Of a DNA stretch of 64,000 nt, positions 43,036 to 48,857 are shown one piece after another (within the stretch, counting starts at the first letter, position 1; the number at the start of each line of letters is the position of its first letter). The position numbers were made by a program, and so were the translations under genes. The notes beneath the pieces were generated by a model. The model was not told where the DNA came from and ran no database searches. It saw only the letters and a list, made by a program, of their open reading frames with translations. The stretch covers positions 16,517 to 80,516 of the forward strand of contig JANXVA010000180.1 in NCBI GenBank assembly GCA_025351875.1. Direction: 5' to 3'. The stretch comes from Myxococcales bacterium. GTDB lineage: Bacteria > Myxococcota_A > Polyangia > Polyangiales > Polyangiaceae.

Positions 43036-43896
43036 TTAGTCGCCATCCATCGCGAGGGCGTGATGGTCGCCCGAGGCGATCTGGATCGCGCTGAGGTCCT
43101 GGTCCGCGCTCAGCTCGGACCACAGACCCCACGCTCTCACGGTCCGTTCCAGGTACACGACGCGCTCCGCGCATCGCGCGACGGCCTGCAGGTTGTGCGT
43201 GACGAGGATCGCTGCGATGGACGCGCTTCCGCTGATCTCGGCCATCAGATCGACGATCGCCGCGCGCCCGCCGACGTCCACGCCGGCCGTGGGCTCGTCG
43301 AGGATGAGGAGCTCGGGCTTCGTCGCGAGCGCGCGCGCAAGGAACACGCGCTGCGTCTCGCCGCCGGAGAGGTCCCTCATCTGCGCGTTCGCGAGCGAGG
43401 TCGCGCCCGTCTTCTCGAGCATGGCCATGGCGAGCTCTCGCTCGGCGTTCGTGATTCGCAGCGGCCAGCGACCGCGCAGGTTCGCGACGATCACCTCGAG
43501 CGGCGACGCGGGAAAATCGCGATCGAACGCCTTCCGCTGCGGGACGTAGCCGATCTTCGAACGGCCCTCCCGTGCGGAGAGGCCCGCGATGCGCACCGAC
43601 CCCTTGTCCGGCGTCACGAGGCCGAGGATCGCCTTGAGCAGCGTGCTCTTGCCCGCGCCGTTCGGCCCGCAGAGGCACAGGAACTCGCCGACCGGGACGT
43701 GGAACGTGACGTCGTCGAGGACCAGCTTGTCGCCGAATTTCTTCGTGACGTTCGCGACCTCGAGGACACGCGGCGCGTCGTCGGGCGGGAGCGTGCCCAT
43801 GAACGGCACGTCCGCCGGACGCCGCGGCACACGCGAGGCAGGACCGAGGCCGCGCGAGGGAGGCGGCATGCTCTTCGCATCAGCGCTCGTCGTCAT
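43036..43896 (-). CDS. Metal (Zn/Mn) ABC transporter ATP-binding protein
   Basis: GPNGAGKS, IGYVPQ, LSGGETQRV, LILDEPT, VTH; ATGA overlap with the SBP gene. Confidence 0.92.
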   Translation of the reverse strand: MTTSADAKSMPPPSRGLGPASRVPRRPADVPFMGTLPPDDAPRVLEVANVTKKFGDKLVLDDVTFHVPVGEFLCLCGPNGAGKSTLLKAILGLVTPDKGSVRIAGLSAREGRSKIGYVPQRKAFDRDFPASPLEVIVANLRGRWPLRITNAERELAMAMLEKTGATSLANAQMRDLSGGETQRVFLARALATKPELLILDEPTAGVDVGGRAAIVDLMAEISGSASIAAILVTHNLQAVARCAERVVYLERTVRAWGLWSELSADQDLSAIQIASGDHHALAMDGD

Positions 43897-44870
43897 TTCA
43901 GGTGCTTTTCGAGCTGCCCCATGTCGAAGTGGATCATCTTCTCGTAGGAGTCGGTCTCGGGGCCGCCGCCCACCGGATCGAGGACGCCGAGCGGGATCTT
44001 CGCCTCGTCGGCGAGGATCTTCGCGGGGCGCGGGTCGAGCTGCGGCTCGCTGAAGAGCGCGGGGACCTTCTTCGTCTTGATCACCTCGAGCACCTTCGAG
44101 ATGTACGCGCCGGACGGCTGCGAGCCCGGATACGGCTCGATCACCGCGAGGATGTCGAGCTTGTAGCGCTCCGCGAAGTACTGGAACGAGCCGTGGAACG
44201 TGACGAAGCCGCGCGTCGTGAGCGCCTTCGTGCGGGTCTCGATCTCGGTGTCGAGCGCGGCGAGCGATGCGTCGATCTCGGTGGCGCGCTTTCGGTAGTC
44301 GAGCGCATGCGGCGAGTCGGCCTTGCCGAGCTCCTCGGCGACCGCGCGGACGATGAGGCGCACGCGCGCGGGGTCGAGCCACACGTGAGGGTCTGTCGCG
44401 CCCTTCTCGTGCTCGTGCTCATCATGCTCTTCCTTCTTCGCGCCGGCCTTCTGCGCCGCCTCGCGCGCCTTGTCGGCCTCCTCGTCGCCGATGGGGTCGT
44501 CCTTGATCGTGAGCGTGGGCACGCGATCGCCGACCTTCACGATGCGAGCCTTCGGCGCCGCGTCGTGCATCAACCTCTCCATCCACGGGTCGAGGCCGAG
44601 CCCCACCATGACCCCGACCTTGGACCTCGACGCGGCCTCGATGTCCTTCGGGGTCGGGTCGAACGAGTGCTCGTTGTGCCCGGGGGGCAGCAGCAGCGCC
44701 ACGTCGGCATCAGGCCCGGCGATGCGGCGCACCAGGTCGTAGACCGGGAAGATCGAGACGGTGACGCTCAGGCGTTCGCTACCGCCGCTGCCGCTACCCC
44801 CACATCCCTTCGAGCAACCAGGGAGAACGGCGAGGAGGGACGGGAGGAGAACGAGGGCGAGTCTGCGCAC
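43893..44870 (-). CDS. Metal (Zn/Mn) ABC substrate-binding lipoprotein (cluster A-I)
   Basis: Lipobox LPGC; HSFDP, His/acid loop EEHDEHEHE, DPHVWLDP, FHGSFQYF. Confidence 0.92.
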   Translation of the reverse strand: MRRLALVLLPSLLAVLPGCSKGCGGSGSGGSERLSVTVSIFPVYDLVRRIAGPDADVALLLPPGHNEHSFDPTPKDIEAASRSKVGVMVGLGLDPWMERLMHDAAPKARIVKVGDRVPTLTIKDDPIGDEEADKAREAAQKAGAKKEEHDEHEHEKGATDPHVWLDPARVRLIVRAVAEELGKADSPHALDYRKRATEIDASLAALDTEIETRTKALTTRGFVTFHGSFQYFAERYKLDILAVIEPYPGSQPSGAYISKVLEVIKTKKVPALFSEPQLDPRPAKILADEAKIPLGVLDPVGGGPETDSYEKMIHFDMGQLEKHLK

Positions 44871-44958
44871 GCACCGCAAGGTATCGCGAGGTCCGTCTCT
44901 TTGCACCGGGGACCTCGTTCGTCCGCGGTCGGGCTCGTGATACAACGGGCGCCCCCTC

Positions 44959-46041
44959 ATGGAGACCGGTGCACGCGCGGTGGAAGGGCCGCTCTACGAG
45001 ATTCGCGGCTCGCTCATCGAGGACCAAGGGCAGATCCTCGCGATCTCCCGGCACCTCAACACGGTGAACCTCCCCGAGGAAGAGGAGGGCGTCCGCCAGA
45101 TCCTCGAGGCCTCGCAGAAGAGCTTCACGCAGGCCACGAAGGACCCGAAGCGCCGGCAGTTCGTGTTCGTCCTCATCGACCGCGCGCAGCAGCGGATCAT
45201 CGGCACCTCGATGGTCTTCGCGCAGCTAGGCCGAAAGGATGCGCCCTACATCTATCTCGACGTCATCGACGAGGAGCGCTACTCGCAGACGCTCGACCGG
45301 CACTTCGAGCACACGATCCTCAAGATTGGCTACTCGTACAACGGCCCGACGGAGATCGGCGGCCTCGTGCTCGACCCGACCTACCGTCGCGTGCCCGAGC
45401 GACTCGGCACGTTCCTGTCGTACGTACGTTTCCTCTTCATCAAGATGCACCGCGAGTGGTTTCGTGACGAGGTGCTCGCCGAGCTCCTCCCCCCGCTCGA
45501 GAAGGACGGCACGTCGCACCTCTGGGACGCGATCGGGCAGCACTTCACCGGCATGACGTACGCCGAGGCCGACAAGCTCTCGCGACGGAACAAGGAGTTC
45601 ATCCGCGGGCTCTTTCCGGAGGGGACGATCTACGCATCGCTGCTCCCGAAGGACGCGCAGGACGTCATCGGCAAGGTCGGCGCACAGACGCGCGGCGTCG
45701 AGAAGCTGCTCCGTCGCATCGGCTTCCGCTATGCCGACCGCGTCGACCCCTTCGACGGCGGTCCGCACTTCACCGCGATGACGGACGAGGTGAGCCTCGT
45801 CGTGAGCTCACGTCGCTTCCGCATCGTCGCGCTCCTCGATCAGCAGGATCTGCCGTCGATCGCCTCGGAGAAGCGGAAGCGCGCCGTCGTGGCCGTCGAG
45901 CCGAACGGCCCGCCATTCTTCCGTGCGATGCTCGCTTCGTTCGAGGAACGCGCGGGGGACACGTGCGCGATCGGCGGAGAAGCGGCGCGCGCGCTCGGGC
46001 TCGAGGTCGGCGCGGACGCGTGGGTCCTGCCGCTCGAGTGA
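44959..46041 (+). CDS. astA: Arginine N-succinyltransferase-like protein
   Basis: TEIGGLVLDPTYR, LSYVRFLF, VLAELLP, SHLWDAIGQHF, AEADKLS, DPFDGGP. Confidence 0.85.
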   Translation: METGARAVEGPLYEIRGSLIEDQGQILAISRHLNTVNLPEEEEGVRQILEASQKSFTQATKDPKRRQFVFVLIDRAQQRIIGTSMVFAQLGRKDAPYIYLDVIDEERYSQTLDRHFEHTILKIGYSYNGPTEIGGLVLDPTYRRVPERLGTFLSYVRFLFIKMHREWFRDEVLAELLPPLEKDGTSHLWDAIGQHFTGMTYAEADKLSRRNKEFIRGLFPEGTIYASLLPKDAQDVIGKVGAQTRGVEKLLRRIGFRYADRVDPFDGGPHFTAMTDEVSLVVSSRRFRIVALLDQQDLPSIASEKRKRAVVAVEPNGPPFFRAMLASFEERAGDTCAIGGEAARALGLEVGADAWVLPLE

Positions 46042-46053
46042 TAAGGTCGAGAA

Positions 46054-47070
46054 ATGGGACTCCTGGGCCGTCGCCGGAAGCGTGAGGACGAAAGCCTCCC
46101 GTTCGACATGTTCGAGCTCACCGCAGGCCACGCCGACCGCGAGGCACGACGCGCACGGCGGCTCGAGAGCATCTACCACCATGGCCAGGCGAAGATCTGG
46201 GATGGGCGTGACGTCCTCGCCGAGCTCGTGCAGAAGCACGGCCGGCCGCAGCTCCCGGAGGCGCAGCGGCAGGCGCTGTCGCGCATCTTCTCGATCATCA
46301 TGTGGGGCGAGCTCGCGGCGTGGAAGATCAGCGCGCAGCTCAGCGATCGCCTCGTCGAGCTCGAGCCCAAGCTCGCCGCCGCCAGCCAGGTGCACGACGA
46401 GGCGCGCCACTTCTACGTGATGCACGACTACCTCGATCTCCTCGGGCACAAGCCTCCGCCGATGGACTTCTGGTCGCGTCGCGTCGTCGAGATGACCCTC
46501 CAGACCGACGACCTCACGAAGAAGCTGCTCGGCATGCAGCTCACGATCGAGACGATCGCGCTGACGCTCTTCCAGCACGTTCGCGAGCTGGGGGTGGAGC
46601 CAGTGCTGGCGGAGCTGCTCCCGTACTACGAGCGAGACGAGGCGCGGCACGTCGGGCTCGGCACGCAGCTCGTGCCCGCGCTCATGGCGAAGATGTCGAT
46701 CCGCGAGACGGTGGGTGTCGCGCTCTTCCAGCTCGAGCTGCTGGCCGCGTCGGTGTTCTCGTTGAAGGCGATGGAGCCGGATCTGGTCACGATCGGCGTC
46801 GACCCGCGCGACATCCTCGCGATCGGGTTTCGCAAGCAGATGGAGATGCAGAAGGTGATGCGCGAGGAGTTCCCCGCATGGCCCGAGGACCCGCCCGTGA
46901 ACCGGCTGTTTCACGGGCTCTGCGAGCTGCTCTTCCCGTCCGAGGGCGAGGGCGTGAAGGTGCCGGCACACGTGCGGCTCGCGCACGCGCTGGCCGTCGT
47001 GAGGCGCACGCGCGAGGGCGTGCTCGAGGTCGCGGACCGAGGGCGGAAGCAACCCGCGCAGGCCGGATGA
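46054..47070 (+). CDS. Ferritin-like diiron protein (AurF-like)
   Basis: Diiron ligand pattern E..DEARH..E..DEARH (WGELAA, QVHDEARH, IETIA, RDEARH). Confidence 0.85.
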   Translation: MGLLGRRRKREDESLPFDMFELTAGHADREARRARRLESIYHHGQAKIWDGRDVLAELVQKHGRPQLPEAQRQALSRIFSIIMWGELAAWKISAQLSDRLVELEPKLAAASQVHDEARHFYVMHDYLDLLGHKPPPMDFWSRRVVEMTLQTDDLTKKLLGMQLTIETIALTLFQHVRELGVEPVLAELLPYYERDEARHVGLGTQLVPALMAKMSIRETVGVALFQLELLAASVFSLKAMEPDLVTIGVDPRDILAIGFRKQMEMQKVMREEFPAWPEDPPVNRLFHGLCELLFPSEGEGVKVPAHVRLAHALAVVRRTREGVLEVADRGRKQPAQAG

Positions 47071-48062
47071 CCGAGCGGGCGCCGACGAAGCGCTCGCACA
47101 GCGCGAAGGCGAGGCGCGAGGTGCACGCGCCGCGCTCCTCTTTCGAGGAGCTCGAGATCCGCACCGAAGACGGCGTCGCGCTTCGCGCGATCGTCCATGA
47201 CCCGCCCGAAGGCGTGGCGCTCCGCGGGTCGTGTGTGATGGCGCATGCCATGTTCGCGCGGAAGACGGAGTTCGGTCGCCGTGAGCGCCCGGGGCTCGCG
47301 CAGGCCTGCGCCGCGAACGGCTGGCGCACGATCGCGTTCGATTTTCGCGGGCACGGCGAGAGCTCGCTCCCGAAGGGCGCGCCCGAGTGGGGCTATGACG
47401 ACCTCGTGCGTCTCGACCTGCCGGCGGTCGTCGAATGTGCGCGCGCGCGCAGCGAACGCAAGCCGGTGGTCGTCGTGGGGCACTCGCTCGGCGGCCACGT
47501 GGCGCTCGCGGCGCAGGGCACGGGCAGGATGAACGCGGACGGCATCGTCGCGATCGCCGCGAACCTGTGGCTGCGCCAGCTCGAGACCTCGCGCGTGCGA
47601 TGGGCCGCGAAGGTCGCGCTCGCGCGCGTGATGCACGAGTCGGTTTCGCGCGTGGGGAAGCTGCCGGCGCGGCAGCTGCGGTTCGGGAGCGACGACGCCT
47701 CGGGGCGCTACGTGCGCGATCTCCTGCGGTTCATGAAAGAGGAGGCGTGGAGGAGCGACGACGGGCGCGACGACTATCTCGCGTCACTCGCGCGAGTCGT
47801 CGCTCCGGTGTGCGCGGTATCGAGCGAGGGCGATCGCATGATGTGCCATCCGGCGTCGGCGGACGCGTTCGCGCGCCTCTGCGGCGGCCCGGTGGAGCTC
47901 GTCCACGTCACGCGCAGCGACGACGGCCGCGGGCCCCCGGGCCACATGGCGCTCGTCACGACCGACCGCGCGCGCACCCCTCTGCTCACCGCGCTCGACT
48001 GGGTAGAAGCGACGATCCTGCGGGCGAGCAAGGACGCGTCGGGCGCGACCACGAATGACTGA
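47067..48062 (+). CDS. Alpha/beta hydrolase
   Basis: FDFRGHG, GHSLGG, GD..C, GHM; ATGA coupling. Confidence 0.88.
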   Translation: MTERAPTKRSHSAKARREVHAPRSSFEELEIRTEDGVALRAIVHDPPEGVALRGSCVMAHAMFARKTEFGRRERPGLAQACAANGWRTIAFDFRGHGESSLPKGAPEWGYDDLVRLDLPAVVECARARSERKPVVVVGHSLGGHVALAAQGTGRMNADGIVAIAANLWLRQLETSRVRWAAKVALARVMHESVSRVGKLPARQLRFGSDDASGRYVRDLLRFMKEEAWRSDDGRDDYLASLARVVAPVCAVSSEGDRMMCHPASADAFARLCGGPVELVHVTRSDDGRGPPGHMALVTTDRARTPLLTALDWVEATILRASKDASGATTND

Positions 48063-48137: not shown

Positions 48138-48857
48138 CTACGCGCGGCCGTAGACCGGGAGCGCGGCTCCGCTGACGTCGCGCGAATCCTCGGAGAGCAG
48201 AAACGCGATGACCGATGAGGCTGAGTCCAGCGAGACCCACCTGGTCGGGTCGGCGGAGGGCATCGACGAGCGGTTCGCCGGCGTGTCCATCGTGCTCGGG
48301 AGGATCGAGTTGATGCGCACGCCGTGCTCGAGCACCTCCTGCGCGACGGTCTGGGCCATCGTGACGACGGCGGCCTTCGACGCGGCGTAGGCCGCCGAGC
48401 CGGTGCTCGTCCATGGACGCTCCACCGCGCGCGAGCCGACGACGACGACGCTGCCGTGCTTCGCCGTGACCATCGACGGCAAGAGCGCCCGCAGCGCGCG
48501 ATAGGCGGTGTCGACGTTGAGCGTGATCATCTTCGCGTAGCCGCTGTCGTCCTTGGCGGCGTGGAGCGGGGCGCCGCCGTCCCAGCCGCCGGCGACGAGC
48601 ACGCCGTGCGTGGGGAGCGCGCCGAACGCCGCCGTCGTCGCCGCGAGCGCGGCGTCCCACGTCGCTGCGGCGGCGAAGTCGCCGGCGTGAGCGAGCGCGT
48701 TCTCCTTGCCGAGCTCGCCCACGAGCTGCGCGAGCCGAGCCTTCGCGCGCTCGGTGTCGAACAGCGCGACGCGGTAGCCCTTGCCGACGAGGTGGGCGGC
48801 GAGCGCGCCGCCGAGCGCGCCGGCGCCTCCGGTGATTGCGGCGATTCGAGTGGTCAT
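48138..48857 (-). CDS. SDR family oxidoreductase
   Basis: TGGAGALG, YAASK, INSILPSTMDTP. Confidence 0.9.
   Translation of the reverse strand: MTTRIAAITGGAGALGGALAAHLVGKGYRVALFDTERAKARLAQLVGELGKENALAHAGDFAAAATWDAALAATTAAFGALPTHGVLVAGGWDGGAPLHAAKDDSGYAKMITLNVDTAYRALRALLPSMVTAKHGSVVVVGSRAVERPWTSTGSAAYAASKAAVVTMAQTVAQEVLEHGVRINSILPSTMDTPANRSSMPSADPTRWVSLDSASSVIAFLLSEDSRDVSGAALPVYGRA

Follow-up and report, generated by a model that had tools for sequence, protein, structure and literature searches.

Organization of the three-gene operon

The window analyzed in this study is a 64,000-nucleotide stretch (approximately 69% GC), located on contig C592, of the Labilithrix-like genome of a soil Myxococcales bacterium, for which an 8.9 Mb assembly with 94.75% completeness is available. 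The best protein matches of this window are named Labilithrix sp. and come from uncultured Myxococcota. The window contains a trio of genes at 44959-48062 on the forward strand. The first gene (44959..46041) encodes P0001 (360 aa), a homologue of the AstA-family N-acyl/succinyltransferases with two GNAT domains, which belongs to an orphan clade of this family. The second gene (46054..47070) encodes P0002 (338 aa), a soluble ferritin-like diiron-carboxylate protein with a core resembling aldehyde-deformylating oxygenase (ADO). The third gene (47067..48062) encodes P0003 (331 aa), a cytoplasmic alpha/beta-fold serine hydrolase. In the initial annotation of this locus, these proteins were proposed to be a possible pathway of protection, oxidation and deprotection, leading to a modified amino acid or amino-lipid by the action of an AstA-like acyltransferase, an AurF-like enzyme for N-oxygenation or desaturation, and a hydrolase.

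The three open reading frames (ORFs) are co-directional and coding-type in composition, and the third-position GC contents of the P0001 and P0002 genes are high (0.90-0.92). The P0001 gene ends with TGA, which is followed by 12 nt (taaggtcgagaa) and the ATG codon of the P0002 gene at 46054. The P0002 and P0003 genes share the sequence ATGA at 47067-47070, so that the start codon of the hydrolase gene overlaps the stop codon of the diiron gene by 4 nt. This overlap is retained in 7/7 genomes. The tight linkage noted in the initial annotation is therefore confirmed by the sequence at both junctions. A consensus scan detects no internal promoter or terminator in the trio beyond chance. Because the flanking genes on both sides are located on the opposite strand, the trio constitutes, by position, a self-contained transcription unit.

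P0001 is a member of an orphan clade of the AstA family

Succinylation of arginine and ornithine is the only known activity of the AstA family. P0001 matches the Pfam AstA model (PF04958) over its full length (residues 15-357) with a score of 305.5 bits, as compared to the gathering score of 29.4, and aligns from end to end with AruF of P. aeruginosa, the structure of which is PDB 1YLE. It is below the cut-off of every NCBIfam model for arginine/ornithine succinyltransferase (AOST) or AstA tested, which are TIGR03243, TIGR03244, TIGR03245 and NF007770 (scores/cut-offs of 198/284, 175/391, 155/459 and 147/521 bits).

P0001 was compared with E. coli AstA, which is encoded in the annotated astCADBE operon, and seven canonical-type AstA proteins from Myxococcota, two of which are encoded next to astD and astB. 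The histidine residue at position 229 of E. coli AstA (GQVHP) is present in 8/8 of these canonical proteins and in 1YLE, whereas P0001 has glycine at this position (GKVG). The corresponding residue of the orphan-type proteins (n=48) is Gly in 42, Asn in five and His in one. Most orphan-type proteins, including P0001, have a new histidine residue in an FDGGPH motif, the canonical counterpart of which is FDGGP(T/L). His229 is presumably the proton donor annotated in UniProt/HAMAP, for which a literature search gave no confirmation, and we infer from the alignment that its replacement may carry functional weight in P0001. Searches of the literature on AstA catalysis and on AstA in Myxococcus found nothing relevant. 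Because P0001 lacks the histidine conserved in the canonical proteins compared, and because its clade is present throughout the phylum beside quite different neighbours, the normal AstA chemistry assumed in the initial annotation is not supported.

The distribution of AstA was surveyed in 151 Myxococcota genomes, each at least 90% complete; owing to the relatedness among these genomes, the counts are descriptive only. An AstA-family protein is present in 64 of them, always as a single match, and these proteins are divided into a canonical class (11 genomes, 408-437 bits) and an orphan class (53 genomes, 280-334 bits). P0001 belongs to the latter, a single-copy clade that is Myxococcota-wide. 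AstB is present in 13 of the 151 genomes, of which three have a canonical AstA, nine have an orphan-class protein and one has no AstA. The astB gene stands alone in the nine orphan-class genomes, with no astA, astD or astE adjoining, and these nine genomes hint that the orphan class may still produce N-succinylarginine in some lineages. In the remaining 44 genomes of this class, one of which is that of the window, there is no AstB to use N-succinylarginine. Because most AstA homologues of Myxococcota lack both the conserved histidine and an AstB partner, irrespective of the trio, the automatic annotation "arginine N-succinyltransferase" and the predictions of arginine catabolism derived from it are probably wrong for this phylum.

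A His-bearing AstA is also often an orphan in Myxococcota. In eight genomes of one family (f45), which encode a canonical-type AstA (408-431 bits, His229 present), AstB is not found, and neither astD nor astB adjoins the gene in the six loci fetched (L183-L188).

The gene for the orphan AstA-like protein lies in a conserved block with NAD_binding_4 reductase, coaE and dtd genes outside the Labilithrix-like family, and has no shared neighbours further out in the phylum. In other families of the order (L039, L042, L044, L046, L050 and L091), it is located immediately downstream of dtd, which encodes a D-aminoacyl-tRNA deacylase (D-Tyr-tRNA deacylase). These two genes often nearly touch each other, and the coaE and NAD_binding_4 reductase genes are divergent beside them. 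The conserved pairing with dtd hints at a role in the handling of D- or mis-charged amino acids.

No AST pathway is found in this genome

No ast gene is found among the neighbours of the trio scanned from 38.1 to 54.0 kb, as noted for astB, astC, astD and astE in the initial annotation. This result extends to the genome as a whole, in which AstB (PF04996) has no match and the equivalog models of AstE, AstD and AstC give scores of 50/306, 231/579 and 409/610 bits, all below the curated cut-offs. AstB has no match in any of 24 congeners either (0/24). The possibility that a normal arginine succinyltransferase (AST) pathway is completed elsewhere in this genome is rejected on these results, which cover an assembly that is 94.75% complete.

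The trio resembles the AST pathway (E. coli astCADBE and Pseudomonas aruCFGDBE) in that P0001 is a full-length homologue of AstA/AruF and in that the logic of acylating an amine, transforming it and hydrolyzing the product could be alike. It differs from this pathway not only in the missing AstB, the sub-cut-off scores of the other Ast proteins and of P0001, and Gly at position 229, but also in its partners. The partners of AstA in the AST pathway are a dihydrolase, a transaminase, a dehydrogenase and a zinc desuccinylase, whereas P0001 is accompanied by P0002, a diiron oxygenase, and P0003, an alpha/beta hydrolase.

P0002 has a six-ligand diiron site and an ADO-like predicted fold

P0002 scores 21.3 bits against the Pfam AurF model (PF11583), below the cut-off of 29.6. 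Its match to Phenol_Hydrox is also sub-threshold, a match to PF11266 (ADO) is not detected at E ≤ 0.01, and a sequence search of the PDB yields nothing useful (best E 0.076). P0002 is nevertheless assigned to the broad diiron superfamily that contains AurF, as less closely related paralogues encoded in this genome exceed the AurF cut-off.

Among 28 aligned relatives, with identities as low as 24%, E86, E116, H119, E166, E196 and H199 are invariant, as are the second-sphere residues D115, R118, D195, R198, Q112 and Q162. This pattern is that of the classic 2 x (E...ExxH) six-ligand diiron site. AurF and CmlI have a third histidine ligand (AurF H223), which we take to be located four residues before the glutamate of the second ExxH motif. 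The residue of P0002 at this position is Tyr192, and the family as a whole has Y, F or I there.

The AlphaFold model of P0002 has a predicted local distance difference test (pLDDT) score of 84. All of the top 11 matches of this model by Foldseek are cyanobacterial ADO. A structure search independent of Foldseek gives a Z score of 24.1 for ADO, with a root-mean-square deviation of 2.2 Å and 210/218 residues aligned. The Z scores for other diiron folds are 21.0 for soluble methane monooxygenase hydroxylase and approximately 19-20 for phenol hydroxylase, R2 and R2lox, and those for CmlI and AurF are only 13.9 and 12.9. The model therefore places an ADO-like core at residues ~65-287 of P0002, with extra helices at the N- and C-termini. 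The identification of P0002 as an AurF-type N-oxygenase, on which the initial annotation relied, is not supported by its sub-cut-off Pfam score, by its set of ligands or by the order in which the folds rank. P0002 shares with the arylamine N-oxygenases AurF and CmlI the ferritin-like diiron superfamily and a weak Pfam match, but it lacks their third histidine ligand, is remote from them in Z score, and is not encoded in a context of aromatic-amine biosynthesis.

ADO of the cyanobacterial AAR-ADO alkane pathway is the best structural match of P0002 and has the same six-ligand site, and some relatives of the diiron gene adjoin a gene for an acyl-reductase-like (NAD_binding_4) protein. P0002 differs from ADO in that the identity is only 17-19%, PF11266 is not matched and approximately 110 extra residues are present in the terminal helices. 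An acyl-acyl carrier protein reductase partner is also missing from the window, in which no acyl-reductase-like gene is detected at E ≤ 1e-15; the partners of P0002 in the trio are instead the AstA-like transferase and the lipase-like hydrolase. A literature search yielded no relevant work on ADO-like proteins of myxobacteria.

P0003 is a serine hydrolase with a lipase-like predicted fold

P0003 exceeds the cut-offs of three Pfam models, Hydrolase_4 (59.5 bits), Abhydrolase_6 (53.9 bits) and Abhydrolase_1 (52.8 bits), and has a catalytic triad consisting of Ser140 in the GHSLGG motif (G138-H-S140-L-G142), Asp256 and His293. D256 and H293 are invariant among its orthologues (n=16), and S140 is conserved in at least 90% of them. 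A signal peptide is not seen by eye. A sequence search of the PDB with P0003 gives only generic esterases and haloperoxidases. The best matches of the P0003 model (pLDDT 90.8) are gastric lipase, with a Z score of 26.8 over 281 residues, and the monoacylglycerol lipase of M. tuberculosis (Z 24.3), followed by a broad plateau of thioesterases, esterases and polyhydroxyalkanoate synthase at Z ≤ 23.4. The modelled fold of P0003 looks similar to those of lipases, monoacylglycerol lipases and thioesterases, and is nearest to those of lipases.

These features of P0001, P0002 and P0003 bear on the possibility that the trio encodes a shortened AST-like route. In such a route, arginine or ornithine would first be N-succinylated, an AurF-type enzyme would then N-oxygenate or desaturate it, and the hydrolase would finally remove the succinyl group. 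This route would agree with the only known reaction of the AstA family and with the AST pathway, which itself protects, transforms and deprotects its substrate. It would also supply the desuccinylase that is otherwise needed when AstE is below the cut-off in the genome, and the distant paralogues of P0002 do exceed the AurF cut-off. However, P0002 itself is under this cut-off, has Tyr at the presumed position of the extra histidine, and has a model much closer to that of ADO than to those of AurF and CmlI; P0001 lacks His229; and the hydrolase resembles lipases rather than amidases. The shortened route is therefore very unlikely. As regards the product, a modified amino acid or an amino-lipid had been suggested in the initial annotation; the amino-lipid fits the evidence better, and the modified arginine fits it less.

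The diiron family is linked to other genes in other loci

The diiron gene has a sister clade, whose members directly follow a Ser/Thr kinase gene in at least 12 loci, one of which is in this genome. The second diiron paralogue of this genome shows 81-86% identity to this kinase-linked clade. It is located directly behind the gene for a 580-aa Ser/Thr kinase and is split over two contig ends (C803:5-535 and C386:3-551; L055 and L056). The linkage to a kinase gene and the dispensability of the diiron gene in many genomes would be explained if the diiron protein is a sensor of O2, iron or redox state, or a regulatory partner, that modulates the operon and does not act as a biosynthetic enzyme. 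However, the complete oxygenase-type ligand set and the second-sphere residues are invariant, and the translational coupling with the hydrolase gene and the enzyme partners in other loci (GMC, GT1 and acyl reductase) fit catalysis better. A sensory or regulatory role is therefore highly improbable.

A derived clade of the diiron family (L124, L134, L145, L152, L158 and others) follows a gene for a GT1 (EryCIII/UDPGT-like) glycosyltransferase, with which the diiron gene overlaps by 4 nt in some loci according to our ORF calls. A gene for an NAD_binding_4 (fatty-acyl-reductase-like) protein is present nearby in approximately eight of the GT1-linked loci, mostly in convergent orientation. These loci may represent a glycolipid or fatty aldehyde module.

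More distant members of the diiron family are located behind TetR genes, a gene for an SCP2 lipid carrier or a YcaO gene. Because the neighbours of the diiron family as a set include GMC, acyl-reductase-like NAD_binding_4, GT1, SCP2 and TetR proteins, and because the predicted folds are ADO-like and lipase-like, we infer that the substrates may be hydrophobic or lipid-derived.

Conservation and history of the trio

Synteny was analyzed for 41 relatives first and then for 80 metagenome loci, in which the neighbours were identified by our own ORF calling, tblastn and Pfam scans. The 41 relatives alone have a conserved pair of the AstA-like and hydrolase genes, with the diiron gene between them in few genomes. 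In the whole set, the AstA-like, diiron and hydrolase genes are arranged directly in a row in 11 loci. These include L113, L120 and L122, in which the AstA-like, diiron and hydrolase proteins are 61-66%, 66-68% and 47-50% identical to those of the window, respectively. The same order is found with one inserted gene (PP2C, SnoaL-like or kinase) in three loci and with the AstA block inverted next door in one locus. The AstA-like gene is followed by the hydrolase gene without the diiron gene in 12 loci, with gaps of 1-214 nt. Conversely, the diiron and hydrolase genes follow a gene other than the AstA-like one in six loci, in several of which they precede a GMC oxidoreductase gene. The AstA-like and diiron genes adjoin each other without the hydrolase gene in L110 and L123. 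The view of the trio as a unit in the initial annotation is supported in part: the trio recurs in diverged relatives, but it is modular by gene order and not an obligate unit. The recurrence of the trio and the lack of an AST pathway in the genome are the reverse of the outcome that had been named as evidence against the proposed pathway, namely an unconserved trio with astB-E elsewhere.

A tree of the hydrolases was constructed by IQ-TREE, and its root was not inferred. The hydrolase and diiron trees contain the same clades and the same sister pairs, which are the window with L014, L018 with L108, L130 with L131, and L116 with L155, and the group of L015, L006, L104 and L106 is also common to both. 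The linkage of the diiron gene requires at least five state changes on the hydrolase tree. In a metagenome relative, L173, whose AstA-like and hydrolase proteins are 95% and 84% identical to those of the window, the diiron gene (L173:4001-4615) has lost E196 and H199 through one of its two in-frame deletions, and is truncated at its end. By its sequence, this gene appears to be caught while being lost. Because the root was not inferred, the direction of change is given by the congruent trees and this decaying copy, from which we read the order of the trio as old in the Labilithrix-like family and the diiron gene as lost repeatedly. Gene order and the trees show the AstA-like and hydrolase genes as a stable core, and the diiron gene as one that has co-diverged with the hydrolase gene and encodes a putative accessory step lost several times. 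The 41 relatives alone would allow a recent insertion of the diiron gene into the pair in one subclade, but this possibility was overturned by the metagenome loci and both trees.

The conservation of the pair also bears on the possibility that two unrelated functions share one transcript, such that the AstA-like protein is a housekeeping arginine/ornithine N-succinyltransferase and the diiron protein and hydrolase form a separate lipid or aldehyde oxidation module downstream. The AstA-like clade is indeed phylum-wide, single-copy and located beside dtd and coaE outside the Labilithrix-like family, and diiron-hydrolase-GMC sets exist without the AstA-like gene directly upstream. In addition, 12 of the 13 genomes with AstB have an AstA-family gene, which is of the orphan type only in nine of them, so that production of N-succinylarginine may persist. 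In contrast, the AstA-like and hydrolase genes are adjacent family-wide even after loss of the diiron gene, the AstA-like and diiron genes adjoin each other in the two loci lacking the hydrolase gene, and the complete trio is also found in lineages that are deeply divergent. We consider two separate functions to be the main alternative and a real possibility, although less likely than not.

Proposed function of the trio

We tentatively favour, with somewhat less than even confidence, the explanation that the trio forms a single operon serving an uncharacterised pathway that tailors acyl-amines or lipids, in which the diiron step is accessory, and which represents neither AST catabolism nor AurF-type N-oxygenation. 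In the first step of this pathway, the AstA-fold enzyme lacking His229 would transfer an acyl or succinyl group from acyl-CoA to an amine, most likely that of an amino acid. In the second step, the ADO-like diiron oxygenase would oxidize either a hydrophobic part of the resultant compound or an aldehyde or alkyl chain derived from lipids. In the third step, the lipase/thioesterase-like hydrolase with the Ser-Asp-His triad would cleave an ester, thioester or amide bond, so that the product is released or recycled. Our best guess for the product is an N-acyl amino acid or another amino-lipid.

Several results weigh against this explanation. The orphan AstA-like gene is single-copy and conserved across Myxococcota (53/151 genomes), with unrelated neighbours such as dtd and coaE, so that it has a role independent of the other two genes. 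The diiron and hydrolase genes are found without the AstA-like gene directly upstream in six loci. The absence of the diiron gene from 12 AstA-hydrolase pairs and its decay in L173 mean that it is not essential to the pair, and the location of its sister paralogue after a Ser/Thr kinase gene could mean a sensing role and not a metabolic one. A single family accounts for most of the synteny, and shared descent within it inflates this support. Finally, the steps of the pathway are all predicted from sequences and models; the ADO fold alone leaves the function of P0002 unfixed, and the lipase-like fold does not fix the substrate of P0003.

In a more specific but unlikely version, the product of the trio would be a lipo-amino acid tailored by oxidation, or a hydrocarbon or alcohol derived from it, and the soluble route to it would be one not described before. 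In this route, the AstA-fold enzyme, with its catalytic histidine exchanged (Gly229, and a new histidine in FDGGPH), would N-acylate an amino acid with a longer acyl-CoA, the ADO-like diiron protein would hydroxylate, desaturate or cleave the chain, and the lipase-like hydrolase would release the product. Similarly, the phylum-wide orphan AstA clade, which is paired with dtd in sister families, might represent an N-acyltransferase for D-amino acids or other non-arginine substrates. A Geobacillus route reportedly uses a succinyltransferase, an N-succinylamino-acid racemase and a desuccinylase for conversion of D- to L-amino acids. It resembles the trio as a three-step operon for protection, transformation and deprotection, in which an amino-acid N-succinyltransferase comes first and a hydrolase comes last, and the pairing of the orphan AstA-like clade with dtd outside the Labilithrix-like family is a further likeness. 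It differs in that its enzymes, a simple GNAT, a racemase of the enolase superfamily and a metallo-amidase, are not known to be homologous to any of the trio proteins.

No system that combines these three families is known to us or came up in the searches run, and each component of the trio adds a new branch to a superfamily already known. Should the three enzymes act on a common substrate, the AstA fold would acquire chemistry outside arginine catabolism, and ADO-like oxygenases would become a larger family. ADO-like enzymes are of practical interest for tailoring of hydrocarbons and lipids. Polyangia are rich in natural products, yet the trio operon would not be flagged by rule-based gene-cluster finders.

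Flanking genes

The trio is flanked by genes on the other strand. Upstream is a conserved block of divergent genes for ZnuA, ABC ATPase and TonB-like proteins. The gene for the ZnuA-family metal-binding protein (43893..44879, reverse strand; PF01297, 223.8 bits) is outside the operon, and its divergent arrangement with the AstA-like gene is retained in many relatives. Downstream are convergent genes for a short-chain dehydrogenase/reductase (SDR), an endonuclease/phosphatase-family protein and a transglutaminase-like protein. The SDR gene (48138..48857, reverse strand; adh_short, 113 bits), which is convergent with the operon at its end, is conserved in the genus by synteny.

The start codon of the ZnuA-like gene is uncertain: its longest ORF reaches 44960, and coding-potential scoring prefers a later start at 44879. 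If the ZnuA-like gene and the divergent AstA-like gene are each taken at their longest ORF, their start codons overlap (CATG, 44958-44961). When the ZnuA-like gene starts at 44879, the intergenic region between these two genes is approximately 80 nt. This divergent region contains a perfect 8-bp inverted repeat at 44887-44917 (CGAGGTCC, 15 nt, GGACCTCG), which could be a candidate operator or leader hairpin.

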